The notes under the pieces: generated by a model | Databases searched by the model: none | What the model was told of the DNA's origin: nothing | Seen by the model: only the letters and a program-made list of their open reading frames with translations | Translations under genes and position numbers: made by a program | Virus record (IMG/VR): IMGVR_UViG_3300029728_000017 | DNA length: 51,722 nt | Strand: one strand, 5' to 3' | Origin: a virus | In this document: positions 1 through 51,722 of the stretch, one piece after another | How the letters are laid out: the number at the start of each line of letters is the position of its first letter | Numbering within the stretch: position 1 is the stretch's first letter

Positions 1-99
1 GCAAATACCGACGGGCAGGGCAGCGACCAGTCGATGATCTCCGATGCACAGCGCCACTTGGGCAGTCCATCCGCGCCGGTTTTGCTGTGGGTGGGCTTC
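1..99. repeat. Terminal overlap identical to 51624..51722 (closure of a circular contig)
   Basis: Both window ends read gcaaataccgacgggcagggcagcgaccag...ttttgctgtgggtgggcttc. They match at all 99 positions by eye. Confidence 0.95.
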
Positions 100-665
100 G
101 GCCACACGATGGGCTTCCTGTCGCAGCGGGCGACCATGTAGAATCTCTTGCGGGAGGTGGGTGCGCCGTAGTCCGCCGCGATCAACTCCCGATACTCCAC
201 GGTGTACCCCAACTCAGTGAGTTGGTCGATGAACTTCCGGAACGTGGTGCCCGCCAGCTTCTTCACCGGCTTGCCCTTCCGCACCGGCCCCCACGTCTGG
301 AACTCCTCCACGTTTTCAAGGATAATGACGCGGGGCCGCACCTTCGCCGCCCAGCGCAGGGTGATCCACGCAAGGCCGCGAATCTTCCGGTCAACCAGCG
401 CCGCACCCTTTGCTTTGGAAAAATGCTTGCAGTCCGGCGAGAACCACGCCAGCCCCACGCGCCGCCCACGGCACACGGCCACGGGGTCAATGTCCCACAC
501 GGACGCCTGAAAGTGTTCCGTATACGGGTGGTTTGTCTTGTGCATCAGAATAGCCGCCGGGTCGTGGTTAATGGCAATCGCCACCGCCATGCCCGTTGCA
601 ATCTCGATACCTGTCGACGCCCCGCCGCCACCGGCGAAATTGTCCACGATGATCTCGCCGGTCAT
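1..665 (-). CDS. DNA (cytosine-5)-methyltransferase, N-terminal part. The ORF runs off the window start and continues in frame at 51623.
   Basis: Absent from the ORF track because it is edge-truncated. Manual translation from the ATG at 663-665 gives MTGEIIVDNFAGGGGASTGIE (motif I), WFSPDCKHFSKAKG (Pro-Cys motif IV), VIILENVEEF (motif VI) and ADYGAPTSRKR (motif VIII). The codon phase matches ORF 50516..51607 through the overlap. Confidence 0.9.
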   Translation of the reverse strand, partial: MTGEIIVDNFAGGGGASTGIEIATGMAVAIAINHDPAAILMHKTNHPYTEHFQASVWDIDPVAVCRGRRVGLAWFSPDCKHFSKAKGAALVDRKIRGLAWITLRWAAKVRPRVIILENVEEFQTWGPVRKGKPVKKLAGTTFRKFIDQLTELGYTVEYRELIAADYGAPTSRKRFYMVARCDRKPIVWPKPTHSKTGADGLPKWRCASEIIDWSLPCPSVF

Positions 666-687
666 CGTCTCTTGTGCAAAAATCATC

Positions 688-963
688 TCAATCTCCAAAC
701 ACCACGCCGCACTCGTCCTTCAGCACATCCTTGATGTGCTTCCGCTTGATACGGCCCTCGTTTATCTCCTCTGCCAGCTTCTCCAAGCACTCATACAGAT
801 ACGCGATGCTGTGGGTGTCCCGGCTGTCCGATGTCTCCTCAAAGACGTGCCAGCCGCACTTGTCCATCAGCACCATCGCCACCATGTCCATGTTTTCCTG
901 CGTTCCCTTCAAGCGGCCTTGCATAATCAGCCGCTCATCACGGGATAGATGCTGCTTACCCAT
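688..963 (-). CDS. Hypothetical 91-aa protein, copy 1 of a duplicated gene (paralog at 48005..48280)
   Basis: ORF track. It differs from the 48005..48280 product at 8 of 91 residues and lies immediately upstream of the methyltransferase start. Confidence 0.8.
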   Translation of the reverse strand: MGKQHLSRDERLIMQGRLKGTQENMDMVAMVLMDKCGWHVFEETSDSRDTHSIAYLYECLEKLAEEINEGRIKRKHIKDVLKDECGVVFGD

Positions 964-1189
964 TTTCTCGCCCCCTTGCCACCAGCCCGGCCCGGTTCAT
1001 GGTGTACCGGCGCAGTTTTGTCATGCTCTGTTTCCGTCCACAGCGCTCACATACGCCGCTCTCCCAGCGATCCTTCACCGGGTCGCGCCGCTGTTCGCGG
1101 GTAGGCTGGATAATATATTCGTGGATCATGTCTATCTGGCAGGCCCAGCAAAGCCTCGCCGTCTCCACTTTCCAGATCCCGTTTTTCAT
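956..1189 (-). CDS. Small Cys-rich (CxxC...CxxC) zinc-ribbon-like protein, function unknown
   Basis: ORF track, 77 aa, with CWAC and CERC pairs. It overlaps both neighbours in an operon-style arrangement. Confidence 0.7.
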   Translation of the reverse strand: MKNGIWKVETARLCWACQIDMIHEYIIQPTREQRRDPVKDRWESGVCERCGRKQSMTKLRRYTMNRAGLVARGRENG

Positions 1190-1572
1190 GGTTCCACCTC
1201 CGTGACCGTCACGCGTATGTAGGGCTTGTCGTGGAAATAGTGCTCAATGCCCCTCACCCACCGGCGGCTGTCGTCGTGGAGCAGAATGCCCTTCATGCCG
1301 TCCTCGATCAGCTTCGCCATGTAAGCGTGGTTGGAGCAATCCAGCCTGTCATTCCACTGGAAGGTCAGTACTGCGGGCCTTTCAAAAGGCCGCTTACGAA
1401 TGTGGGCGGCGTTGATAGCGCTCACCGTCAGCGTGTGCCACAGTCTCGCGTCGTCCCGCCGCTTCGACCAGTGCTTTCCCGCATAGATAGCATTCAGCCC
1501 ATATGCCTTGTTCCACGCCTTCCTTCCGGCGTCGGTGTCCGGATAGCGGATGATGAATGATTCTCTGCTCAT
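1186..1572 (-). CDS. RusA-like Holliday junction resolvase (putative)
   Basis: ORF track, 128 aa. IYAGKHWSKRRDDARLW and RLDCSNHAYMAKLIEDGMKGILLHDDSRRWV resemble the RusA DxDN...K...D...DD pattern of Gram-positive phages. Confidence 0.6.
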   Translation of the reverse strand: MSRESFIIRYPDTDAGRKAWNKAYGLNAIYAGKHWSKRRDDARLWHTLTVSAINAAHIRKRPFERPAVLTFQWNDRLDCSNHAYMAKLIEDGMKGILLHDDSRRWVRGIEHYFHDKPYIRVTVTEVEP

Positions 1573-2819: not shown

Positions 2820-3108
2820 CTATAAGTACGATTTCCCGAACTCGCGCCGGAAATCATCTTCCGTCCAGCCATGCTCCTGCATGGCCTTTAGCTGTCCGTA
2901 TCGCCGCAGCCTGCGCATTTGTTCGCCGCTGCGGTGTACTGCCGTCTTTCCGTTCCTGTGGCACCTGTTGCCGCATAGATAGACCACAAGGCCGTATTTT
3001 TCGCTTTTCTTGCGATATGCTGCACCAAATATGTGGCTAATGGTGCCGTTCTAATGGATCGCTTGCGTCACATCTTCCGCAAAGAAAACATTTCCTGTTA
3101 TTTGGCAC
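2820..3108 (-). pseudogene. Small Cys/His-rich (HNH/NinG-like) gene split by an apparent +1 frameshift
   Basis: Manual read. From the GTG at 3106-3108: (M)PNNRKCFLCGRCDASDPLERHH, then TAG at 3037-3039. The next frame continues SHIFGAAYRKKSEKYGLVVYLCGNRCHRNGKTAVH...FGKSYL to a stop at 2820-2822. Skipping one base at 3039 joins the two pieces. Confidence 0.5.
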
Positions 3109-3637
3109 CGTTTATCACCTCATTTCTGAACCGAATCGCATCAGATAGGTTCTTAAAATCTCTGCTTGTTTTCGCCCACTTGATATTCACGCGATATCCT
3201 TTTTTGTAGCGAATTATGTATTTCTCCCCGGTTGATGACGGTCTATAGCGGCCTTTTTGGTGACGCATAAGATGCCTCGATCGACCGACATTTTCTTTTT
3301 GCGTAACCCACTCCAAGTTATTTACCACATTATTGCTCCTGTTGTGATCGCGGTGATCGACAACCAAGTTTTCCCCTTCCGGTTTATCAAGAAACACTTC
3401 CGCTACAAGGCGATGAACATAATAATTAGTCCTTACTCCATTATCGCGGAGTGACACATAGGCGTACCCGTTTCCGTTGTTTCCTGGCGCCAAAACGTGT
3501 CCTTTATCCGTTCGCGGCGAAGTCCCACCGTGGCAATTATTTACAATCCGCGTTCTCGTTAGTGAGCGCAACCGTCCCATATTGCTTATTTCGTAAGCCC
3601 CTTCATAACCAGGAACGGGTTTCCAAATTTCACCCAT
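3098..3637 (-). CDS. HNH homing endonuclease (NUMOD4-like N-terminus plus HNH_3-type core)
   Basis: ORF track, 179 aa, with WKPVPGYEGAYEISNMGRLRS and VDHRDHNRSNNVVNNLEWVTQKEN. It is visibly AT-richer than its flanks and overlaps both neighbouring genes. Confidence 0.9.
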   Translation of the reverse strand: MGEIWKPVPGYEGAYEISNMGRLRSLTRTRIVNNCHGGTSPRTDKGHVLAPGNNGNGYAYVSLRDNGVRTNYYVHRLVAEVFLDKPEGENLVVDHRDHNRSNNVVNNLEWVTQKENVGRSRHLMRHQKGRYRPSSTGEKYIIRYKKGYRVNIKWAKTSRDFKNLSDAIRFRNEVINGAK

Positions 3638-4193
3638 TCACCAGCACCTCCGTTCCGTCAGGTACATACTCTGGGCAGTAATGGATGGCGAAAGATGTGA
3701 CCTCGCCCGCATTCCCCTGATATTTCGTGGTGGGGGTCGCGTCCCAGCCCTTCACAGGCTCCGGGTACTTCTGCGACCAACTGCACCCTCCGGCGTAGTT
3801 CCGGCACGTCCAACATGGTTGTGGATGGCCGGGGCGGCGGTCTGCCTTTCTCCTCGCCTTACAGCCGCAGCTGTATGCGCCTCTCAGATTCCGCGCCAGT
3901 ACCACCCGCGTCTTGCCGCAGTCGCACACGCAGAGCCATTTCGGCCCATCCGGCCCCGATCCGAGGCAGTGGTCGACCACCAGCATCCCGTGCCGCTCTC
4001 CTGTGTGGTCAGTGCGGCGCGAACCTGTTGTGCCGCCCCGGTGCAGTTGCTTTCCCGGTGTGAAGGTCGCTTCCGGCGTCCACCCCCTGTCCAGCCGGTT
4101 CCGCAGCGTCTTTTGCGGCAGATTTAGTTCCTTCGCCCATTGCCGCATGGTCAGGGACTTTCCGTGGGCGGTATAGATTTTTGCTGTGCTCAT
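3630..4193 (-). CDS. HTH plus Cys-rich DNA-binding protein, function unknown
   Basis: Met 80 of ORF 3630..4430 has an ATGA overlap with the upstream stop. LTMRQWAKELNLPQKTLRNRLDRGW is HTH-like, and several CxC/CxxC pairs follow. Confidence 0.7.
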   Translation of the reverse strand: MSTAKIYTAHGKSLTMRQWAKELNLPQKTLRNRLDRGWTPEATFTPGKQLHRGGTTGSRRTDHTGERHGMLVVDHCLGSGPDGPKWLCVCDCGKTRVVLARNLRGAYSCGCKARRKADRRPGHPQPCWTCRNYAGGCSWSQKYPEPVKGWDATPTTKYQGNAGEVTSFAIHYCPEYVPDGTEVLVNG

Positions 4194-4735
4194 ACGCTCA
4201 CCTCGCCCCACCGGGACACCAGCGCATCCAGCTCTCTGGGCGTCATGGTCTCGATACCGTTCTCCTTGCAGTCCGCCACCACCAACACAATGAGCTGTGA
4301 CATCTGAGCCGTGTCGTAATCGCTGGAAGATAGGTAAGACCGGACATTGTGATAGCCCTTGATATTCCGGCACGGCCCCATGTCCTCGATCATTCGGCCT
4401 ATGTGGCCGCTGCACCAGACTTTTTCCCATGCGTCAATGCGATCCTCCCGCACCGGCACCACCTCATAGCCGCCGCCGATATCCGGGATATAGGCCCGGT
4501 AGATGCCCTCCGGCTCGATCTTCAGCTTGTCCGCCAGCCGGTTCACCAGCACCCAGAAATAGGCATTGGCGTCCAGACTGCGGCCCTTGCGCTTCAACGT
4601 CAGGCTGTACTCTTTTCCCGCTTTCAGGCTGTCGCACACGTCCATAGCCGTCTTGTCGCTGCCTACCCGGAAGGCCAGCCACGACCCGTCGCCGTCCCGC
4701 AGCCACCGTGCGGCGTCCACCGTCACCTGCTGCAT
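4190..4735 (-). CDS. NinB/Orf-like recombination mediator (putative)
   Basis: Met 30 of ORF 4190..4822 is preceded by AGGAGG. KRKGRSLDANAYFWVLVNRLADKL parallels lambda NinB RNRSLDQNRKLWACLGDVSRQV. Confidence 0.5.
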   Translation of the reverse strand: MQQVTVDAARWLRDGDGSWLAFRVGSDKTAMDVCDSLKAGKEYSLTLKRKGRSLDANAYFWVLVNRLADKLKIEPEGIYRAYIPDIGGGYEVVPVREDRIDAWEKVWCSGHIGRMIEDMGPCRNIKGYHNVRSYLSSSDYDTAQMSQLIVLVVADCKENGIETMTPRELDALVSRWGEVSV

Positions 4736-8858: not shown

Positions 8859-9074
8859 TTACTCGTGGTCAATTGCTTCGCTGATCGCGCCGTCCACGAT
8901 TTTCAGCACGATGCGGCATTCCTCATAGCTCACGGCCAGATCGGCCGTGACCAGCAAATTAAGGATCTTGCCTGCGGCTTTCATCAGGTTTGCCATGCGG
9001 GCCGGTGTGATGTAGTAGCCGCACTGCTGTATCACCCGTTCTTTTTCCGCGTTCAGTTTTTCAATTGGTGTCAT
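8859..9074 (-). CDS. Hypothetical protein
   Basis: ORF track, 71 aa. Confidence 0.7.
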   Translation of the reverse strand: MTPIEKLNAEKERVIQQCGYYITPARMANLMKAAGKILNLLVTADLAVSYEECRIVLKIVDGAISEAIDHE

Positions 9075-9085
9075 TTATTTGTTGC

Positions 9086-9114
9086 TTGCCTTTCCCCCAC
9101 GGAAGTGATATACT
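9086..9114 (+). promoter_or_regulatory. Plus-strand promoter with an extended -10
   Basis: TTGCCT (9086-9091), a 17-bp spacer, then TGaTATACT (9106-9114). It is divergent from the gene starting at 9074. Confidence 0.45.
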
Positions 9115-9120
9115 GTCCGT

Positions 9121-9189
9121 AGGAACATGTGGTTTGTGTTCTTCTCTCGCCCTGTTCGGTCTGCTACACCGGGCAGGGCCCTCTTTTTA
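9121..9189 (+). ncRNA. Candidate small RNA of about 70 nt ending in a strong intrinsic terminator
   Basis: A 12-bp stem GCCCTGTTCGGT-ctgctac-ACCGGGCAGGGC (9149-9179) contains two T-G pairs that are valid only on the plus strand. It is followed by CCTCTTTTTAT. No ORF is present. Confidence 0.35.
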
Positions 9190-9473
9190 TGGGCAATTGC
9201 GCATCCCACCGAAGCAGCTCGGTGCTTCACCATGCTCGTCACCACCGCGCTTTACCTTTGCAAAACTATCCGTCGCTAATCGTTACGGTTCCATACCTTT
9301 GCTTGGCATATCGAAGCTCCTCGAATCCTTTGCTGCGCGGGTCAATGCGTCTCGATTCCGTCACAGGTCAAAACTACGCATCGCCTTTGCCGCTCAATGC
9401 TCCAGCATTCCGCACGTCACCATTGCCATGCAATTCGTTTCCCTACCGTTGCCAAACTACGCCTCGGCCTGCC

Positions 9474-10079
9474 TTACCCTTGCTTGATGTTGACTTCCTC
9501 CCAGGTGAATCGCCCTTTCCCACTGTTGCGCCACTGACCCATTCCGGAGTACCGTCCGTAGTCCAGCCACTCTCGCACAGCCTTCTCGTGGTCGTCGCAC
9601 AGGCACACAATGGTAAAGTCACACGTTGCGCCGGCGGGAATCTGCTCAGACAGCGCCAGACTCACGCGCTCACCCTGCATAGTCTGTGCCCGAAGAGGTC
9701 TGCTGCATTCGCCGATCTCACCGGCAAAAAAGACGGGGATGGTGCGCGGCTCCACGAAGATCAGTTTGTCGATTTCCTTCTTGTATGCCTTGATACCGCT
9801 GGATTTTGTTCCCTTGACACGCCGCAGGCCGCCGCAGGTATCCTTGAAAAAGCCCTTAATCTGATAATCGTAGAAGAACGGCGTGCCATCGTCCAGCTTC
9901 GGGAAAATGGTCTTGCCTTTCTCAACAACGCCCTCTACGCCGAGGGCGGCAACCTCATCCTCAAGGGTGTAAGCATCCGGCGCGTTGCCTCCGATAAACT
10001 CACGATAGATGTCAGGATTACCGGGGCAGGTGCCCAGCACCGCTTCCGTAAAAGTCAGTTTCACTTTGATCTCTTTCAT
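9474..10079 (-). CDS. Conserved phage early protein, function unknown
   Basis: ORF track, 201 aa. It is the first gene downstream of the cro-like gene. The C-terminus carries a Gly-rich loop GMGQWRNSGKGRF. Confidence 0.8.
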   Translation of the reverse strand: MKEIKVKLTFTEAVLGTCPGNPDIYREFIGGNAPDAYTLEDEVAALGVEGVVEKGKTIFPKLDDGTPFFYDYQIKGFFKDTCGGLRRVKGTKSSGIKAYKKEIDKLIFVEPRTIPVFFAGEIGECSRPLRAQTMQGERVSLALSEQIPAGATCDFTIVCLCDDHEKAVREWLDYGRYSGMGQWRNSGKGRFTWEEVNIKQG

Positions 10080-36032: not shown

Positions 36033-36084
36033 AAAAAAAGAAAGAGGGGCTAACCAACTACAATTCGTAGTCAGTTAGCCCCTC
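36033..36084 (-). terminator. Strong intrinsic terminator closing the accessory island
   Basis: The minus strand reads GAGGGGCTAAC-tgactacgaattgtagttg-GTTAGCCCCTC, followed by TTTCTTTTTTT. Confidence 0.8.
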
Positions 36085-36168
36085 TCGGCTCTTCTCACTC
36101 ACCGCTTAGAGCGAGGTCGAATATTTGTTTGATTTATTATACCATACCACGCGACCGGTGGCAAGCGC

Positions 36169-43820: not shown

Positions 43821-44445
43821 GCTGTTCTCCTCTTTGTTCGGCTTCCCGCTTAGATTGTCACGCGCTCATGCCCGCTTAAGGCCCCGCAAGCATCTCAAGC
43901 GCCACCGTTCGGTCATGGCAAGGAGGACGCATCCTCACGCGCAGTTTTCAGCGAGCATTGTCATTTCCACGTCGGGCATGCCGATACGCTCCGACATTGT
44001 CCGGGCGCTACCCGGCCTCTGGTGCGGCATTGCAGTCCTGCCCTGCTTTAGCGCTTCAAGGGAAAAGCCCCCGCCACTCGCTGTGGTCTCCCCTTACTGG
44101 GCACCTATGCCGCGTATTGGGCGTTTTCTTTCGGCTTCCGCCTATCCGCCTTGAGGAATACGCACAACCCTTCGGAACTCCACGGTAAACGCATGGCGGA
44201 GCGCCTACCGCTTCAATGTTCTGGCACACTTTCGGGCGGGACGCTATGCCACTTGCCTGCGGTAGTGCCGCACCGCTTTTTTCGTCGCGGATTCCGTCTC
44301 TACAGGCTCCGTATTGCCCAGCCGTTTTCTATGTGTCGGCACACTGTGACCGGATGGGAGGCGCGACCTCCCGCCCCTGATCGTGGGGTATCTCACGAAG
44401 TCCGGCGTATACCCGTCATATACCGCTGGCGGGAAAGCGGTTGAA
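43821..44445 (-). ncRNA. Candidate large structured ncRNA (ROOL/GOLLD-like class). The strand is not settled.
   Basis: About 625 nt with no credible ORF, GC-rich, with many short perfect helices. It is directly adjacent to a tRNA-like gene. See the findings. Confidence 0.4.
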
Positions 44446-44529
44446 TGGAGGCATTGGCGGGAATCGAACCCTGCATCGTCCATCGGCGGCAATTTCCGCC
44501 GTGCGCTCTTCCAACTGAGCTACAATGCC
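44446..44529 (-). tRNA. tRNA-like element of 84 nt with encoded CCA and a non-canonical anticodon arm. No anticodon can be assigned.
   Basis: It reads GGCATTG-TA-GCTC-AGTTGGAA-GAGC-G-[CACGGCGG-AAATTG-CCGCCGaTG]-GACGAT-GCaGGG-TTCGATT-CCCGC-CAATGCC-T-CCA. The acceptor stem and D arm are perfect, but the anticodon arm is an 8-bp stem closing a 6-nt loop. Confidence 0.6.
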
Positions 44530-45548: not shown

Positions 45549-45673
45549 CACTCCACCTCCCATTTCAATTCTTCATACAGTTCAGCAAACCGCTTGTTCC
45601 ACTTCCGCATGCCGCGGAATACATACACGGCAAGTGCAATCCAGATAATTGATGCAATATCACTCATGCTCAT
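45548..45673 (-). CDS. Small single-TM protein
   Basis: An internal Met of ORF 45548..45754 lies 9 nt after GAGGAGG. Sequence MSMSDIASIIWIALAVYVFRGMRKW. Confidence 0.5.
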   Translation of the reverse strand: MSMSDIASIIWIALAVYVFRGMRKWNKRFAELYEELKWEVE

Positions 45674-45953
45674 GCTCATTCGCCTCCTCAATCCGCCCCG
45701 CCAGCCGTTCCAACTTGTACTGGCGGTACTTGTCCACAGTCTCCTTGCAGTCAAACAGAATCACCAACTGCTGAAGCATGATCTCCACGTCGGCGATCTC
45801 CTCCGCAATGTGCGGGGTGTTCTCCTGCCCTCTGCTGTTTTTGCAAAGCTCCTTTGTCGGTTCGCTCATTTCCTCGATGGCCATTGTCACCTGTAATTCC
45901 TTCCCGAAGGTTTCCAGCGCCGCCTGACAAATTGCGTTATCGTGTAGTATCAT
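45660..45953 (-). CDS. MazG-like nucleotide pyrophosphohydrolase (putative)
   Basis: ORF track, 97 aa. LQVTMAIEEMSEPTKEL...IAEEIADVEIMLQQL shows the EExxE...ExxD helix pattern. Confidence 0.55.
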   Translation of the reverse strand: MILHDNAICQAALETFGKELQVTMAIEEMSEPTKELCKNSRGQENTPHIAEEIADVEIMLQQLVILFDCKETVDKYRQYKLERLAGRIEEANEHEHE

Positions 45954-46810
45954 TTTGCGGTCACCACCGTATCAGCGCCCTGTACAGTCACCCAGCCATG
46001 CTTGAGACGCGCCTCCGCTTCCTTCATCTGGATTAGCTCCGGCGTAATGGATTCCGCAATGGTCTTGTTGGCTTTTGCCTCAGCTTCCGCCTCAATGATC
46101 TTTACAGCAGCCTCAGATTCAGCGATAACGCGATTTGTTTCTGCCTGCGCTTCCGCCGTCTGTTTGGCAAGTTCTGCGATCTCTGCATCCTGCTTGGCCT
46201 GCTCTTTTGCCCGTACCTTTTCCTGCAACGCGGAATCCAGTTCCACGTCAATGATCAGGGCACTGGACACGTTGATACCATACTCGGTACTAAGTTTCTC
46301 ATTCAGGTAGTCGGTAATAGCCTTGTTTACCTCTGACTTTTTGTCGGAATAGATGTCCATAACGGAGAATCTGGGGGTAACTTCCTTCACATAGGCAATA
46401 ATGCTGTTCTGCACGCGACCCTCTACAATGGCCTCTCCGTCCATGCCGTTAAATTTCTCGTACAGGCTCACCACGCGGTCAGGCAGGAAATTGTAGTTGA
46501 CCGTCAGGTTAATGCCCACCATGCCGCCGTTGGCAGGGGCATCAATATGCCAATCTGCATGTTCGTCTGTGTTGTAGTCAGATGGATCGTCGGAAAAAAC
46601 AATCTGCTGCTGACTAACGGGAAACTGCTTGACGTGCTTCAATGGTGATAGCCAATGCCAGCCCTGTGTCAGCGTGTTTTGCTCCACGCCCTTTGCGGAA
46701 TACACAACGCCCACATAGCCCACCTTGATTCTTGTCAGGCAGATGATGCAGAAAACAGCAACAACCACCGCCAGCACGGCGGAAACAGCAATAGCGATAC
46801 CTTTTTTCAT
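45950..46810 (-). CDS. SPFH/band-7 (prohibitin/HflC-like) membrane protein
   Basis: ORF track, 286 aa. It has an N-terminal TM helix, an SPFH-like core (VGVVYSAKGVEQNTLTQGWHWLSP) and an Ala/Glu-rich coiled coil. Confidence 0.8.
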   Translation of the reverse strand: MKKGIAIAVSAVLAVVVAVFCIICLTRIKVGYVGVVYSAKGVEQNTLTQGWHWLSPLKHVKQFPVSQQQIVFSDDPSDYNTDEHADWHIDAPANGGMVGINLTVNYNFLPDRVVSLYEKFNGMDGEAIVEGRVQNSIIAYVKEVTPRFSVMDIYSDKKSEVNKAITDYLNEKLSTEYGINVSSALIIDVELDSALQEKVRAKEQAKQDAEIAELAKQTAEAQAETNRVIAESEAAVKIIEAEAEAKANKTIAESITPELIQMKEAEARLKHGWVTVQGADTVVTAK

Positions 46811-47115
46811 GACTTTTTACCTCCAAAAATGTTATAAATTACGACAAACGATACGCCAAATACAATGATGAATAGTGTGATAATCTCTTTCATCTTTTTT
46901 CCCTCCGGCGTACTTAACGCCGCCAGATTAAACCGCAGCCCCTCATTGGCCTGCCGCAGCGCTTCTATCTCCCGCTGCTGGTTCTCGATCAGGTAGGTGG
47001 CGAGACCCGCCATTTTTTCAATGCAGTCTGGGTCGTCAAGTCCAATCGGGCATTCATTACATCCCGCTTTTTCGGCACAGCACCGCAGCGCGGTCACGAT
47101 CTCATCTCTTGTCAT
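46807..47115 (-). CDS. Cys-rich protein with a C-terminal TM helix
   Basis: Met 12 of ORF 46807..47148 lies 6 nt after AAGAGGAGG. Contains ALRCCAEKAGCNECP...DPDC and ends IITLFIIVFGVSFVVIY. Confidence 0.65.
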   Translation of the reverse strand: MTRDEIVTALRCCAEKAGCNECPIGLDDPDCIEKMAGLATYLIENQQREIEALRQANEGLRFNLAALSTPEGKKMKEIITLFIIVFGVSFVVIYNIFGGKKS

Positions 47116-47128
47116 GTCATTCCTCCTC

Positions 47129-48001
47129 TTACCCAGTAAATTCTTCAAAGCTGCACGACTGGAACGCCGCCCGCATATTTACCCATCGTGCAAGGCGCTT
47201 CTGTTCGGCAGTCGGCTCTCCGCCGTCGTAGTCGCGGTACGGCTGGGCAAACGGCTCCACGCCCATGTCCCGCAAGGCAAGAATGCGCTTATAGCTTTCC
47301 TCCACATCCTGCACAAGTACATAGCACCAAAAACGCCACGGCCGCACACCCGCCTCTTCCAGATACGCCGTGGCCTGTTTGATTACCGGCAGCATGGTAG
47401 AGGTGTCACAGCTCATGCGGACAAACCTGATCCATTTCAGCCCTGCCAACAGCTTTGCCGTCTGCGGCGTGATGAGCCGTGCGTCCAAGCCCTGATTAAA
47501 GTCCACCCGCACATTCTCATGCCCCATGCGCTCGATCTGCTCTAAGCCGTGGTCGTGCGCCAAAACGTTGTTGTCCATGAAAATGATGTCCCGGCTGTCA
47601 GGGCGTTTTACTTCCTCCCATGTTGCCGCCGGTCGGATAAGCCCTTCTTTCTTCGGCACGATGCACCAAGGGCAGTTGCGGATGCAGCCGCGTGTTAGAA
47701 AGCCGATGGCCGGTTTCCACGCCGGATACAGCGAGTAGTCAGGTCGCATTCTCTCTACCTCGTCCGGCAGAGCGCCGTAATCCTTGTAGCCTGTGCCGCC
47801 TGTAATAATCTCATCGGCATTGATGCAGGTATCCACATCAGGGGAAAACGTAAAAACCTTACTCATGTACACCCGGTCATAGTGTTTGAACCCGTCCCAC
47901 CACTCCACGCTGTCACAACGGGCTTTGTAGTAGGCAGACAGCCGCATCAATGCGAGGTTCGGAAAGTTGTGACCGTCTACGTCGATCAATCCAATGTTCA
48001 T
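47129..48001 (-). CDS. Radical SAM enzyme
   Basis: ORF track, 290 aa. It has a CX3CX2C cluster in FLTRGCIRNCPWCIVP. The start lies 3 nt after the stop of 91-aa gene copy 2. Confidence 0.8.
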   Translation of the reverse strand: MNIGLIDVDGHNFPNLALMRLSAYYKARCDSVEWWDGFKHYDRVYMSKVFTFSPDVDTCINADEIITGGTGYKDYGALPDEVERMRPDYSLYPAWKPAIGFLTRGCIRNCPWCIVPKKEGLIRPAATWEEVKRPDSRDIIFMDNNVLAHDHGLEQIERMGHENVRVDFNQGLDARLITPQTAKLLAGLKWIRFVRMSCDTSTMLPVIKQATAYLEEAGVRPWRFWCYVLVQDVEESYKRILALRDMGVEPFAQPYRDYDGGEPTAEQKRLARWVNMRAAFQSCSFEEFTG

Positions 48002-48004
48002 GTC

Positions 48005-48280
48005 TCAATCTCCAAACACAACGCCGCACTCGTCCTTCAGCATATCCTTGATGTGCTTCCGCTTGATGCGGCCTTCGTTTATCTCCTCTGCCAGCTTTTC
48101 CAGGCACTCATACAGATACGCGATGCTCTGCGTGTCCCGGCTGTCCGATGTCTCCTCAAAGACGTGCCAGCCGCATTTGTCCATCAGCACCATTGCCACC
48201 ATGTCCATGTTCTCCTGTGTGCCTTGCAGCTTGCCACGCATAAAGATGCGGTCGTCCCTGCTCAAATGCTGTTTACCCAT
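48005..48280 (-). CDS. Hypothetical 91-aa protein, copy 2 of the duplicated gene (paralog of 688..963)
   Basis: ORF track. Its protein matches copy 1 at 83 of 91 residues, and the DNA similarity begins and ends at the ORF boundaries. Confidence 0.8.
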   Translation of the reverse strand: MGKQHLSRDDRIFMRGKLQGTQENMDMVAMVLMDKCGWHVFEETSDSRDTQSIAYLYECLEKLAEEINEGRIKRKHIKDMLKDECGVVFGD

Positions 48281-48281
48281 C

Positions 48282-49364
48282 TCAATACCTCACTCCTATG
48301 TAGTCCAGCACCCGCGCATAGCCAAGGCCGTCTTTCGTGGGTTTCCACAGCCCATCCGTGTCGAATGCCCCGCCGCCGATGCAGAACGCATAGTGCTTCG
48401 GGTGCGTGTGCTTCATGCACTCAAACCGGTTTTCTCCTTTTTCGAGGTGTGCCCCGAACGCGCAAAACATGCACCCCGTCCTCTGGCACCCCGTGCAATG
48501 CAGCGGCTTTTCGATTAGCGTTGACGGATAATCATTCTCGCCGTCGCTCGCCACGATGTTGCCGTATACGCTGCAATACGGGATGTTTTCGTCCTTTAGG
48601 AACGCAAGCACGTCCTGTTCTGTCCAGAAGCTCATAGGCTTGCTCATGGGGCGCTTGCCGTCAAAGGCGTTGCAGCCCGTGCGCTTCCACTCTTTTTCTC
48701 GCTGCTGGCTCTCGCTCGCCATCATCGCGGTAAATGGCACACATCCGCTCGTAGCTTCGTATCGCTTGGCGGGTGCTTTTTTCATCACGTCGCAGCATTG
48801 CTCGCTAATGCGGAACGGCGCATCCTTGAGATAATGCCACTTGTCCGCCAGTTTCATCGTCGAGCAGTAAACGCCCTTCCGGTTGTATCCGGTCAGATAC
48901 AGATTGACCGTTGCATCGTTCTGCCCGTGCGCGTTTTGTAAATCGCGGATAAAGCGCGCCTGTTTTTTGCCGATGACGGGATACCCGTGCTTTGCTATGA
49001 CCTGCCGAATGTTGAGCTTTGGCCTCAGCCGCACGAGCTGCACCTTGATCCGCGGGAACTTCCTTTGCAGCCAATCCGCGTACTCATTGACGAATTTCTG
49101 AATTTCAGGGTATTCCAGCCCTGTGTTCACAAACACCAGATTCAGCTCCCACGGCGGTGTCCTGAAGCTCGACAGGTACCGCGCCGCCAGATACGCCAGC
49201 ACCGTGCTATCCTTTCCGCCGGAGAAACTGACGTAGCACTGCCCGCCCCATGCGGTGTACCATTCGTCTAGCTTTTCGTAGGTCAGTATCTCCTTGTCCT
49301 GCACGTCCAGCGCCATCAGTTTCTTCGCCGCTTCATTCGTCAGCGGCTGATTGATTGGCAGCAT
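48282..49364 (-). CDS. PAPS-reductase-family PP-loop protein (DndC-like) with a C-terminal Cys cluster
   Basis: ORF track, 360 aa. It has the PP-loop VSFSGGKDSTV and the C-terminal cluster HCTGCQRTGCMFCAFG. Confidence 0.8.
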   Translation of the reverse strand: MLPINQPLTNEAAKKLMALDVQDKEILTYEKLDEWYTAWGGQCYVSFSGGKDSTVLAYLAARYLSSFRTPPWELNLVFVNTGLEYPEIQKFVNEYADWLQRKFPRIKVQLVRLRPKLNIRQVIAKHGYPVIGKKQARFIRDLQNAHGQNDATVNLYLTGYNRKGVYCSTMKLADKWHYLKDAPFRISEQCCDVMKKAPAKRYEATSGCVPFTAMMASESQQREKEWKRTGCNAFDGKRPMSKPMSFWTEQDVLAFLKDENIPYCSVYGNIVASDGENDYPSTLIEKPLHCTGCQRTGCMFCAFGAHLEKGENRFECMKHTHPKHYAFCIGGGAFDTDGLWKPTKDGLGYARVLDYIGVRY

Positions 49365-50404
49365 TACTCAGCCTCCACCAACTTGCCGTTTACCAGCTTA
49401 TACCATGTGTCCGCTCTGATGTCCGTGCCGTCTACGACAAACGCTTTCCACTCTTTGATGTCCCAATTGTCCTCGTTTTCCTCACAGATCACCAGCACAG
49501 CACCAAGACCGCCTTTAATCTTCACATCGTTACCTCGAACAAGGCCGCATCCATTTTTGCCAACAGAAACAGATCCTTTTGCGGTGGCTGCGCCGCGATA
49601 GCCTGCGGTGGCTGCGCCGTAAGCGCCTGCGGTGGCTGCGCCGCTATCGCCTGCGGTGGCTGCGCCGTAAGCGCCTGCGGCGGCTGCGCCGCTATCGCCT
49701 GCGGTGGCTGCGCCGTAAGCGCCTGCGGTGGCTGCGCCGTAAGCGCCTGCGGTGGCTGCGCCGTAAGCGCCTGCGGTGGCTGCGCCGCGATAGCCTGCGG
49801 TGGCTGCGCCGTAAGCGCCTGCGGCGGCTGCGCCGCTATCGCCTGCGGTGGCTGCGCCGTAAGCGCCTGCGGTGGCTGCGCCGCTATCGCCTGCGGTGGC
49901 TGCGCCGCGATAGCCTGCGGTGGCTGCGCCGTAAGCGCCTGCGGTGGCTGCGCCGTAAGCGCCTGCGGTGGCTGCGCCGCTATCGCCTGCGGTGGCTGCG
50001 CCGCTATCGCCTGCGGTGGCTGCGCCGCTATCGCCTGCGGTGGCTGCGCCGCAAGCGCCTGCGGTGGCTGCTTTCTGGTCGGTATGTTCCATTGTGGTAT
50101 GCGCCTTGACGTACTCAACGTGAGCCTTTACCAGACCGGGAATGCCGATCTCCGCGCCCACCGTAAGCTTCTTGGCAACGCGCTTGCTATCATCTCCACG
50201 TTCGTCGCTCACGCCGTCCATTTCCACTTCGCAATACCGGCTTCCTTCGCCGGGCGCGTAATATCTGAACACATCCAACGGCGCTTCACAAGCGTGCAAG
50301 CCCTGATTGCACAGCTTCACTTTGTCAACTTCCTGCGTGCCGCCGATCTCATACTGCAAACCTCTGCACTGCAAATTCTTGTCAAAACCCTTGTAAGCTT
50401 TCAT
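49364..50404 (-). CDS. Octapeptide-repeat protein: a globular N-terminal domain, 20.5 copies of GAATAG(DS/AY/YR), and a globular C-terminal domain
   Basis: ORF track, 346 aa. The flanking non-repeat domains fix the frame (MKAYKGFDKNLQCRGLQYEIGG...LHACEAPLDVFRYY and ...WKAFVVDGTDIRADTWYKLVNGKLVEAE). The stop overlaps the next start. Confidence 0.8.
   Translation of the reverse strand: MKAYKGFDKNLQCRGLQYEIGGTQEVDKVKLCNQGLHACEAPLDVFRYYAPGEGSRYCEVEMDGVSDERGDDSKRVAKKLTVGAEIGIPGLVKAHVEYVKAHTTMEHTDQKAATAGACGAATAGDSGAATAGDSGAATAGDSGAATAGAYGAATAGAYGAATAGYRGAATAGDSGAATAGAYGAATAGDSGAAAAGAYGAATAGYRGAATAGAYGAATAGAYGAATAGAYGAATAGDSGAAAAGAYGAATAGDSGAATAGAYGAATAGYRGAATAKGSVSVGKNGCGLVRGNDVKIKGGLGAVLVICEENEDNWDIKEWKAFVVDGTDIRADTWYKLVNGKLVEAE
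49580..50071 (-). repeat. Tandem array of 20.5 copies of a 24-bp unit, in frame within 49364..50404
   Basis: The plus-strand unit is gcggtggctgcgccg-NNNNNN-cctg, with three recurrent cores: gctatcgc (Asp-Ser), gtaagcgc (Ala-Tyr) and gcgatagc (Tyr-Arg). Confidence 0.95.
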
Positions 50405-50515
50405 TTTTCATTCTCCTTATCGATATCTTCTTGCTGAAATCTCCGTAATGGCATAGCCGTATCTGGCGTGAAACATTCGGGCCTTGATAGAGTAGCTTTC
50501 AGTCCTTACCCCCTT

Positions 50516-51722
50516 CTATACCGCCACGCAGTCCATCAGCTGCGCCATTGTCGTTATGGTCACGCCGCACCACTCCGGCAGGTTGGCCCGCACCAGAGCG
50601 GACGCCACCGGCGGGCAGACGGCATTGCCGCACCGCGCCACCTGTGCGCTCTTTTTGTACTTATTGCCCTCATAATCACGGTCAATGATGTAATCCGGCG
50701 GGAATCCCATAGCGTTGTACAGCTCACGGGGCGACAGCATCCGCAGTCCGATATCCGCGATGTAGTACAGTGCGCCGCCGATCTCCAGCAGCAACACATC
50801 ATCATCCGCCAGCGCATAGCCGCAGAATTCATTCAGCAGGGCGCGAATCTCGGGCCAGTGGCCCAGATCGTCACCGCTGCGCATCTTTGCCAGATACGCC
50901 TTGCACACGGCGAACTCCCCGGCGCTGGTGGTCACTGTCTGCATCGGCTCATCTGCCCCATGCCCCAGGTTGTCACCCTTGAACTTTACAACATGGGCGG
51001 CGACCACCGCCTCACGGTCGTGGCTGGTAACGGTGTGCATGGGGTCTTGCACATCCAGCGGCCTGCCGCCGGTGTAATACTCCACCAGATTGGCGCAGGT
51101 CAGGCCGTATCGGTTGGAGGCGTCCACCGTGTGGATAGGCGTCCCCAGCCCGGATGCCCGAACGTGTTCCGTCTGTTCCGTGTGATACTGGATCAGCGCG
51201 GGCGCCACGATGCCGCCGGTATGCTTGGCGGTGATGGTCTTGTGAGCATCCGTCACAGGTGCAATATGCCCGCCGCCAGAGTGGTTGCACTCCGCAAGGA
51301 AGGGCGTTACCAGCATCTGATTCCCTGCGGTCGTTACGGTATGTACCGGCGCTCCGACCGTCCCGCCCACGCTGTTGCTGGTGTTGGTCACCGTCACAGG
51401 TGCCAGCAGCGGCTTGCACAATTCATGCGCTCCTACCGCCGTAACAGTCGTCAATGGCTTTTCGATGTTCTGCGCAGCGTTCTGGAATTTCTGCTGTACG
51501 ATGAACGGCTTGCCGCTGCGGATGGTGAACTTGTCCACGCCCCGGATGATCCGCCGCATAGTGTTCTTCGCCAGCGGGCGCACCGCTTTCAGGCCGTATT
51601 TGTCCATGATCTGCGCCTTAGATGCAAATACCGACGGGCAGGGCAGCGACCAGTCGATGATCTCCGATGCACAGCGCCACTTGGGCAGTCCATCCGCGCC
51701 GGTTTTGCTGTGGGTGGGCTTC
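50516..51722 (-). CDS. DNA (cytosine-5)-methyltransferase, C-terminal part, with an expanded target-recognition region (same gene as 1..665)
   Basis: ORF track 50516..51607, and the frame stays open to the window end. It has RMLSPRELYNAMGFPPDY (motif IX) and CGNAVCPPVA (motif X). The joined gene is 1773 nt, or 590 aa. Confidence 0.9.
   Translation of the reverse strand, partial: KPTHSKTGADGLPKWRCASEIIDWSLPCPSVFASKAQIMDKYGLKAVRPLAKNTMRRIIRGVDKFTIRSGKPFIVQQKFQNAAQNIEKPLTTVTAVGAHELCKPLLAPVTVTNTSNSVGGTVGAPVHTVTTAGNQMLVTPFLAECNHSGGGHIAPVTDAHKTITAKHTGGIVAPALIQYHTEQTEHVRASGLGTPIHTVDASNRYGLTCANLVEYYTGGRPLDVQDPMHTVTSHDREAVVAAHVVKFKGDNLGHGADEPMQTVTTSAGEFAVCKAYLAKMRSGDDLGHWPEIRALLNEFCGYALADDDVLLLEIGGALYYIADIGLRMLSPRELYNAMGFPPDYIIDRDYEGNKYKKSAQVARCGNAVCPPVASALVRANLPEWCGVTITTMAQLMDCVAV
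51624..51722. repeat. Terminal overlap identical to 1..99
   Basis: See the feature at 1..99. Confidence 0.95.

Follow-up and report, generated by a model that had tools for sequence, protein, structure and literature searches.

Phage hypermodification clusters exist in which a C5 methyltransferase is combined with a TET/JBP dioxygenase, and the Bacillus phages SPR, phi3T, and rho11s encode multispecific C5 methyltransferases. Proteins of the PAPS-reductase superfamily form a second group of phage-encoded enzymes; one member of the PAPS-reductase family, NinC, is dispensable for phage lambda (PMC10695390). A PAPS-Dam fusion encoded by a vibriophage, together with a neighbouring gene, gives escape from Dnd (Piel et al. 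2022; bioRxiv 10.1101/2021.05.05.442762), and PAPS reductases are included in Aca-regulated anti-defence operons (PMC13551039). Gut bacteria have been reported to carry phosphorothioate-based systems, BREX type 4 included (PMC12914056). The present analysis concerns a region of the IMG/VR virus record IMGVR_UViG_3300029728_000017 (51,722 nucleotides, referred to below as the window), in which genes for a C5 methyltransferase, a PAPS-reductase-superfamily PP-loop protein (PAPS-like), and a radical SAM enzyme lie close together on the minus strand. The region is probably an accessory counter-restriction region, similar to the lambda nin region and composed of separately exchangeable cassettes, the enzymes of which most likely act independently. 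Its enzymes include a C5 methyltransferase of the orphan type, a PAPS-superfamily enzyme that resembles NinC or the anti-Dnd protein, and an as yet uncharacterised radical SAM enzyme of phages. The cassettes most likely come from common phage families and do not make up one new multi-enzyme DNA-modification system.

A sequence-only reading of this DNA had described the region as a putative DNA-modification/anti-restriction island, the genes of which might together install a DNA modification beyond 5-methylcytosine (5mC). Such genes are indeed concentrated here, and as the description of a hot spot the label is reasonable; the co-occurrence data presented below give no support to a new system in which the genes are combined. 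All of the open reading frames (ORFs) listed in that reading were found at their coordinates on the minus strand, and the joining of 665..1 with 51623..50516 does yield an uninterrupted 590-aa protein across the circle junction. The features at the centre of the argument are as follows.

688..963, minus strand: p91a, 91 aa, directly upstream of the C5 methyltransferase (ORF; no family match)
1..665, minus strand: N-terminal part of the C5 methyltransferase, with motifs I to VIII, joined across the circle junction
50516..51623, minus strand: C-terminal part of the C5 methyltransferase, a long variable region and then motifs IX and X
49364..50404, minus strand: DUF7666 protein, 346 aa, about 20 octapeptide repeats (GAATAG-DS, -AY or -YR); PF24703, phrog_4433, phrog_27197
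49580..50071, no strand assigned: 24-bp tandem array, 20.5 copies, encoding the octapeptides (Tandem Repeats Finder score 746, 89% matches)
48282..49364, minus strand: PAPS-reductase-superfamily PP-loop protein, 360 aa; PF01507, phrog_424
48005..48280, minus strand: p91b, the second 91-aa copy, the start of which overlaps the stop of the PAPS-like gene (ORF)
47129..48001, minus strand: radical SAM enzyme, 290 aa, phrog_9298, with CX3CX2C at residues 106-113

Co-occurrence of the genes and cassette structure

Three sets of loci, 80 in each, were drawn from IMG/VR: loci anchored on the radical SAM gene (45-100% identity), loci anchored on the PAPS-like gene (69-95% identity), and SSB-anchored loci, which served as a background sample from the same phage group. 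The first PAPS hidden Markov model (HMM) missed distant PAPS subfamilies beside the radical SAM gene, which were seen by Pfam; it was rebuilt wider, with distant subfamilies, lambda NinC, LoVEphage, and Dulem virus 39 among its seeds, and the count at radical SAM loci was still 18/80. A single co-inherited system is not what these neighbourhoods reveal. The radical SAM gene is present in 2/80 PAPS-anchored loci, and C5 methyltransferase genes are found in 32/80 radical SAM-anchored loci and, with the widened HMM, in 45/80 PAPS-anchored loci; by tblastn, a methyltransferase close to that of the window is present in 1/80 PAPS-anchored loci. In the SSB-anchored background, PAPS-superfamily genes occur in 35/79 loci and C5 methyltransferase genes in 54/79, both higher than near the radical SAM gene; thus, no enrichment of either gene near radical SAM over the SSB background was found. 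Among well-flanked radical SAM loci at 65-85% identity, a PAPS or C5 methyltransferase gene is present in 3/20. In the 64 background loci that extend at least 8 kb downstream of SSB, p91 is found in 54, the MazG-like gene in 55, C5 methyltransferase in 43, PAPS in 29, DUF7666 in 16, and radical SAM in 4, and PAPS and radical SAM show no significant association there (Fisher test, p = 0.32). Since these phages very often carry PAPS and C5 methyltransferase genes, and since all of the genes considered here share one small slot, adjacency is not evidence of dependence.

As a separate observation, PAPS and C5 methyltransferase genes were negatively associated in the SSB-anchored loci L167-L245 when the narrow HMM was used (odds ratio 0.09, p = 1e-4), as if one took the place of the other beside p91. 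This association is not relied on here, as the wider HMM gives an overlap of 19/79 against approximately 24 expected, and phylogeny is ignored.

The way in which the region was assembled can be followed by comparison with its relatives, in which the usual order is [DUF7666]-[PAPS]-p91-[C5 methyltransferase]-...-MazG-like. In these phages, p91 is nearly constant, and PAPS and methyltransferase genes are optional on either side of it; p91 lies directly downstream of PAPS in 38/80 PAPS-anchored loci, and p91 followed by the methyltransferase is the commonest arrangement. In particular, locus L002, which is 90-97% identical to the window in nucleotide sequence through the backbone and flanks, has the order zinc-finger-like gene, methyltransferase, radical SAM, and lacks exactly two segments of the window, 957..678 (p91a) and 50519..48005 (DUF7666-PAPS-p91b). 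Homology with L002 stops at window position 958, within the 77-aa zinc-finger-like gene, and DNA comparisons place the joints at gene boundaries. L002 thus keeps the methyltransferase followed by radical SAM without the PAPS cassette. Two other loci, L133 and L047, carry DUF7666-PAPS-p91-methyltransferase, and L004 carries DUF7666-PAPS-p91-radical SAM. The window is a recombinant of a p91-methyltransferase unit and a DUF7666-PAPS-p91 unit, and because each of the two joined cassettes brought its own p91, two diverged p91 alleles are present.

The two p91 copies share 89% DNA identity, and their homology ends exactly at the ORF boundaries. In a faecal phage from GenBank, the p91 segment alone is common to a 4.5-kb query (95.7% identity). 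The latter observation fits a role of p91 as a conserved recombination anchor. In the favoured explanation, p91 is a lineage-specific gene that normally lies between PAPS and methyltransferase genes and that occurs here as two alleles through recombination of two cassettes. The sequence-only reading had treated the protein as a duplicated small gene; two copies are indeed present, but p91 is a conserved anchor gene that is normally single, with PAPS on one side and the methyltransferase on the other. With 218 clusters, the p91 family is a narrow one; no domain can be recognised in it, and no match to it was found in Pfam, PHROGs, NCBIfam, or PADLOC. Counts of p91 were made with strict phmmer and tblastn only; a count from an iterated HMM was discarded because the model drifted to an unrelated phage family of 160-200 aa that shares an LAEADKDGR-like motif. 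The possibility that p91 is a DNA mimic was set aside, as the protein has an isoelectric point of approximately 5.4 and is not strongly acidic.

Independent assortment and insertions or deletions at gene boundaries would also suit a grouping without functional meaning, in which the genes are cargo in a permissive slot and the PAPS-like and radical SAM enzymes act on host metabolism or RNA. Unrelated cargo is present in the operon (genes for an SPFH protein, a small membrane protein, and the repeat protein), and PAPS homologues are also found within head-morphogenesis modules. However, when the longer immediate neighbours of the radical SAM gene were scanned at 20 diverse loci, a C5 methyltransferase, a Dam-Mom fusion, or a PAPS gene adjoined it in 8/20; thus, the radical SAM family belongs in a DNA-modification/counter-defence neighbourhood. 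For the PAPS-like gene, a phage PAPS domain for which an anti-Dnd effect was found by experiment serves as a precedent (bioRxiv 10.1101/2021.05.05.442762), and anti-defence operons regulated by Aca can include PAPS reductases (PMC13551039). Cargo without a shared purpose is consequently considered unlikely.

Several points count against the favoured explanation of independent cassettes. The co-occurrence counts ignore phylogeny and span only about ±10 kb around the anchor gene. PAPS and radical SAM genes lie side by side or close together in several lineages that are independent of one another and differ in PAPS subfamily (L009, L040, L045, L057, L075, L079, and Dulem virus 39), and the trio of C5 methyltransferase, PAPS, and radical SAM recurs in varied gene orders in the window, L047, L079, and Dulem virus 39. 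Furthermore, the structure model of the PAPS-like protein is poor (pLDDT 56, from an alignment of 39 sequences with 67-89% identity). As to whether the genes co-occur beyond the window phage, similar sets do recur in distant phages: in Dulem virus 39, the MazG-like, C5 methyltransferase, PAPS, and radical SAM genes are contiguous, with the PAPS and radical SAM proteins approximately 36% identical to those of the window; L079 has the order C5 methyltransferase-radical SAM-PAPS, L045 radical SAM-PAPS, and L057 PAPS-radical SAM; and LoVEphage encodes PAPS, radical SAM, Dam, and a nucleoside triphosphate (NTP) pyrophosphatase within 7 kb.

Such recurrence, together with the tight packing of the genes on one strand with overlapping starts and stops, is what favours the proposal of the sequence-only reading that the C5 methyltransferase, the PP-loop protein, and the radical SAM enzyme form one pathway and install, in sequence, a hypermodification beyond 5mC, for example by oxygen-independent functionalisation of 5-methylcytosine or another base. 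It is also in keeping with this proposal that all named hosts of phages with this radical SAM family are, to our knowledge, strict anaerobes, in which the oxygen-dependent chemistry of TET/JBP enzymes would be unavailable. On the other side, 78/80 PAPS-anchored loci are without radical SAM and 62/80 radical SAM-anchored loci are without PAPS, neither partner rises above the same-group background rates, L002 retains the methyltransferase and radical SAM with no PAPS gene, and the largest radical SAM subgroup (approximately 74% identity) has neither partner nearby. One pathway is thus rather improbable. The same holds for the more specific idea that the phrog_9298 radical SAM enzyme, the gene for which is repeatedly found near genes for C5, Dam, and Mom methyltransferases and PAPS-like PP-loop enzymes, is an oxygen-independent DNA hypermodification enzyme. 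In phages such as this one, it could then act jointly with the methyltransferase and the PP-loop protein to produce an undescribed modification of a DNA base or of the backbone; if true, this would make it an anaerobic counterpart of the phage TET/JBP dioxygenases.

Independent cassettes in a counter-defence hot spot call for tests gene by gene and not for the pursuit of a single pathway. The phage families of the PAPS-like and radical SAM proteins are both very large: for each, the number of clusters returned, at 90% identity, was at least 8,000. Moreover, L002 and the window phage form a natural pair that differs by the PAPS cassette and thus offers a clean comparison for the role of the PAPS-like gene, a role that is relevant for the window phage given the phosphorothioate systems in gut bacteria (PMC12914056).

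The methyltransferase, PP-loop, and radical SAM proteins

The 590-aa methyltransferase matches PF00145 with 89.8 bits (cut-off 22) and phrog_116 at 1e-99. The match above the cut-off and the conserved motifs bear out its earlier assignment as a C5 methyltransferase. Regular-expression searches located FAGGG (motif I), ENV (motif VI), TSRKR (a variant of motif VIII), RELYNAMGFP, and GNAV; motif IV gave no such match, and an SPDC variant was assigned by eye from the translation. The variable region of approximately 310 aa contains six tandem units of about 32-36 aa each (aa 280-455), which share the motif P-x-[HQT]-T-[VI]-[TD]. Five of them are matched by the expression x-T-[VI]-[TD], at aa 280, 316, 386, 418, and 450, and the sixth, with KTIT near aa 352, was read by eye; relatives carry 3-7 such units. 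Units of this kind resemble the conserved core of the target-recognition domains of C5 methyltransferases, and the array suggests that the enzyme may be multispecific and may methylate several sequence contexts. Its phrog_116 relatives are encoded by Aeromonas, Pseudomonas, Vibrio, and actinobacterial phages. As an orphan C5 methyltransferase, to judge from its family, the enzyme would methylate cytosines of replicating phage DNA, and methylation of several contexts, if the predicted multispecificity holds, would protect that DNA against restriction by the host.

The PP-loop protein matches PF01507 with 64.6 bits (cut-off 22.5) and phrog_424 at 8e-47, and its SGGKDS motif (residues 48-53) is invariant across 39 homologues, in agreement with the sequence-only reading, which had placed it in the PAPS-reductase family. 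Several cysteines are invariant or nearly so, namely the CC dyad at 190-191, C231, C290, C293, C298, C301, and C328; the dyad is invariant among the homologues, and the C-terminal cluster has the form CxxC-x4-CxxC. Because of the dyad and the C-terminal cluster, the protein probably binds an Fe-S cluster, and these features would fit an Fe-S PP-loop enzyme of the sulfur-transfer kind. Searches of the PDB by sequence and profile gave matches over the PP-loop alone, and a fold search with the structure model returned generic PP-loop enzymes (NAD synthetase, TtuA, LarE, and the PAPS domain of FAD synthase) with no discrimination between subfamilies.

The protein would act as a PP-loop ATP pyrophosphatase, probably with an Fe-S cluster and the Cys dyad involved in its chemistry. 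The analogy with DndC, SspD, BrxP, and the vibriophage PAPS-Dam protein makes adenylation of a nucleic acid or a cofactor, together with sulfur transfer, the most likely reaction, which might either add a protective mark or subvert a host phosphorothioate-dependent defence.

The parallel with DndC and type 4 BREX that had been drawn in the sequence-only reading did not survive profile searches, in which the models of DndC, BrxP, and SspD were all failed by the PP-loop protein. The PADLOC model of DndC aligns only with residues 30-102, at 13.3 bits (E = 0.0075), and no Dnd partner is encoded among the 10 island proteins; BrxP gives 32 bits over approximately 120 of 779 profile positions and SspD 28 bits over residues 45-107, in both cases with no partner proteins among the island proteins. 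Profile scans of the island genes for a DndD/SspC/BrxC-type ATPase, DndE, DUF4007, and a cysteine desulfurase were likewise negative.

Stand-alone homologues of the PAPS-like protein are found in phages of Vibrio, C. perfringens, and Ruminococcus, and those of the C. perfringens and Ruminococcus phages lie among head-morphogenesis genes. Two of these, which are 37-43% identical to the PAPS-like protein, occupy an odd site for a DNA-metabolism enzyme: in the Ruminococcus phage NatCom_23091 (L166, 4932-6017), the gene lies between the portal and maturation protease genes, and in the Clostridium phage phiCP34O (L254, 3426-4394), it lies inside the head-morphogenesis module.

Public annotations call the homologues PAPS reductase, and the protein matches the Pfam family PAPS_reduct; it might thus be an assimilatory PAPS/APS reductase (CysH), that is, an auxiliary metabolic gene for sulfur assimilation by the host. 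However, the NCBIfam equivalog NF002537 gives 24.4 bits (cut-off 154), and CysD models are also far under their cut-offs. The C-terminal catalytic Cys motif of CysH is ECGLH. This motif is absent from the PP-loop protein, in which the corresponding candidate, cysteine 316 (FECMK), is an arginine in the homologue consensus; moreover, the gene is located amid DNA-metabolism genes. A CysH function is very unlikely.

The radical SAM enzyme consists of a short N-terminal beta-alpha-beta (Rossmann-like) domain followed by a partial TIM barrel. Its match to Pfam PF04055 is weak (18.3 bits, under the gathering score of 29.5), but the assignment is secured by the match to phrog_9298 (7e-98), by cysteines C106, C110, and C113, which are invariant in 37 homologues, and by the AlphaFold model (pLDDT 87), which matches radical SAM barrels. 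The CX3CX2C motif and the partial TIM barrel confirm the earlier radical SAM call. Among the best fold matches in the PDB are BlsE, QueE, LipA, NifB, and Mmp10, all with weak E-values of 1e-3 or higher; searches of the PDB by sequence and profile gave no match, and no close characterised relative was found by sequence or fold. According to GenBank records, the family is present in phages of Bacteroides, Phocaeicola, Clostridium tetani, Oscillospiraceae, Marinitoga, and Methanomassiliicoccales, and in phiCT453B it occurs without the partners considered here. The gene product would be a stand-alone, oxygen-sensitive enzyme, with either the modification of nucleic acid or the inactivation of part of a defence system as its probable function; to judge from the locus counts, it needs neither the PAPS gene nor the methyltransferase.

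Two neighbours of distant radical SAM homologues were noted in passing. In L039, the adjoining gene (9046-10017) encodes a Dam-Mom fusion protein (PF05869 and PF25680), and in L045, it (9104-9934) encodes a DUF5131 protein.

A 7-deazaguanine DNA modification built by the PP-loop protein as a QueC-like enzyme and the radical SAM protein as a QueE-like one, a parallel also drawn in the sequence-only reading, can hardly be credited: the shared superfamilies (PP-loop ATPase and radical SAM, with the two genes close together) and the presence of QueE among the weak structural matches speak for it, but no QueC or QueE model of Pfam or NCBIfam was matched, the QueE fold match (template modelling score 0.37) is no better than those to unrelated radical SAM enzymes, no FolE, QueD, or DpdA/TGT was found among the proteins scanned (the island proteins and part of the remaining genome), and the PAPS-like and radical SAM genes assort independently.

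Genomic setting and neighbouring genes

The first 99 bases of the window are an exact match to the last 99, so the record represents a circular genome of 51,623 bp. The phage is temperate and of siphovirus type, probably with a host among gut Oscillospiraceae; an integrase is encoded elsewhere in the genome, and relatives of p91 are found on contigs of metagenome-assembled genomes from Oscillospiraceae and other Clostridia, which are probably prophages. The features that border the island or belong to its downstream part are listed below.

51624..51722, no strand assigned: terminal overlap, 99 bp, which repeats window 1-99 and is an artefact of circular-genome assembly
1186..1572, minus strand: RusA-like Holliday junction resolvase, the upstream border of the island (phrog_4632 9e-12; PF05866 20.7 bits, cut-off 22.8)
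956..1189, minus strand: 77-aa protein with weak zinc-finger-like matches, the final backbone gene before the island
46807..47148, minus strand: small Cys-rich protein, 113 aa, with a hydrophobic C-terminal segment (ORF; no family match)
45950..46810, minus strand: SPFH/Band 7 protein, 286 aa (PF01145 85 bits)
45660..45953, minus strand: MazG-like nucleoside triphosphate pyrophosphohydrolase, 97 aa (phrog_2245 1e-30)

In the order of transcription, the early operon encodes a RecE-like exonuclease, NinB/Orf, two HNH endonucleases, and SSB, followed by a loader-like protein, RusA, the small zinc-finger-like protein, and the island. On the minus strand, the island itself runs from p91a through the C5 methyltransferase, the DUF7666 protein, the PAPS-like protein, p91b, and the radical SAM enzyme to the Cys-rich, SPFH, and MazG-like proteins; these genes follow one another closely, with overlaps at several of their starts and stops. 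Beyond the island lie a tRNA-like gene, a drum RNA, and the genes for the large terminase subunit and the portal. The island fills an accessory slot between recombination/replication genes (NinB/Orf, SSB, and RusA) and the terminase gene, a position equivalent to that of the nin region in lambda.

The DUF7666 protein matches PF24703 over residues 1-93 (1e-32) and phrog_4433 over residues 1-202, and phrog_27197 spans its C-terminus; a literature search on DUF7666 found no paper. The number of octapeptide units varies (20 in the window, 8 in L004 and L132), and the location of the gene differs among relatives. Many public IMG/VR contigs start inside the DUF7666 gene (L001, L007, L016, L020, L021, L035, L041, L047, L080, and others), and thus assemblies appear to break at the 24-bp array.

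At the downstream end of the island, the C-terminal segment of the Cys-rich protein is probably membrane-spanning, as its hydrophobicity suggests, and homologues of this protein come after the radical SAM or methyltransferase gene in many relatives. The earlier SPFH and MazG-like calls are upheld by PF01145 and phrog_2245, respectively, the MazG-like call coming from PHROGs only. Close homologues of the SPFH protein are found in only one of the 160 radical SAM- and PAPS-anchored loci (L001, near-identical to the window phage), and the gene looks like a rare accessory gene; the MazG-like gene is, by the counts given above (55/64), a regular member of related SSB-anchored loci.

Other elements of the genome were also observed. 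Two adjoining HNH endonuclease genes (window 3098-4430, minus strand) lie in the recombination module between NinB/Orf and SSB. The interval between the island and the terminase gene includes approximately 1 kb without a convincing gene, in which a drum RNA (RF02958, 82 bits) lies beside the tRNA-like gene (window 44116-44221 and 44446-44529, both minus strand); the latter is assigned by ARAGORN to Phe with anticodon AAA and has an Rfam tRNA score of 35.9 bits. A gut-2 RNA motif (RF02990, 47 bits) is located within the structural genes (window 36071-36118, minus strand).

Comparison with described systems

Compared with the multispecific enzymes of the Bacillus phages SPR, phi3T, and rho11s, the methyltransferase of the window is likewise an orphan phage C5 methyltransferase with an enlarged variable region and several tandem units that resemble target-recognition cores, but it belongs to a different subfamily, phrog_116. 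The hypermodification clusters built on a C5 methyltransferase and a TET/JBP dioxygenase share with this locus a C5 methyltransferase gene next to a gene for an enzyme capable of C-H activation. In the window, however, that enzyme is a radical SAM enzyme, the presence of which does not follow that of the methyltransferase, and neither a glycosyltransferase nor any other transferase for a downstream step was seen.

DndC, SspD, and BrxP have in common with the PAPS-like protein the PAPS-reductase superfamily, the PP-loop, and a probable Fe-S cluster. DndC carries a Cys dyad (PMC10853773), which the invariant CC dyad of the window protein recalls, but the PADLOC scores of 13 to 32 bits are confined to the PP-loop region. 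Lambda NinC is comparable in its setting: both proteins belong to the PAPS-reductase family, and both genes are sited between replication/recombination genes (NinB/Orf and a junction resolvase) and late genes. Their sequence similarity is confined to the PP-loop (34 bits, E = 2e-6), with nothing significant beyond it in BLASTP, and the proteins differ in length (290 aa for NinC and 360 aa for the PAPS-like protein).

The vibriophage PAPS-Dam system differs in that the PAPS protein of the window is separate, is 360 aa long, and has a Cys-rich C-terminal half, and in that its partner is a C5 and not a Dam methyltransferase. What the two have in common is a PAPS-superfamily domain tied to a DNA methyltransferase in a variable counter-defence region, and the order PAPS-p91-methyltransferase in close relatives of the window may be compared with the PAPS-Dam fusion of the vibriophage.

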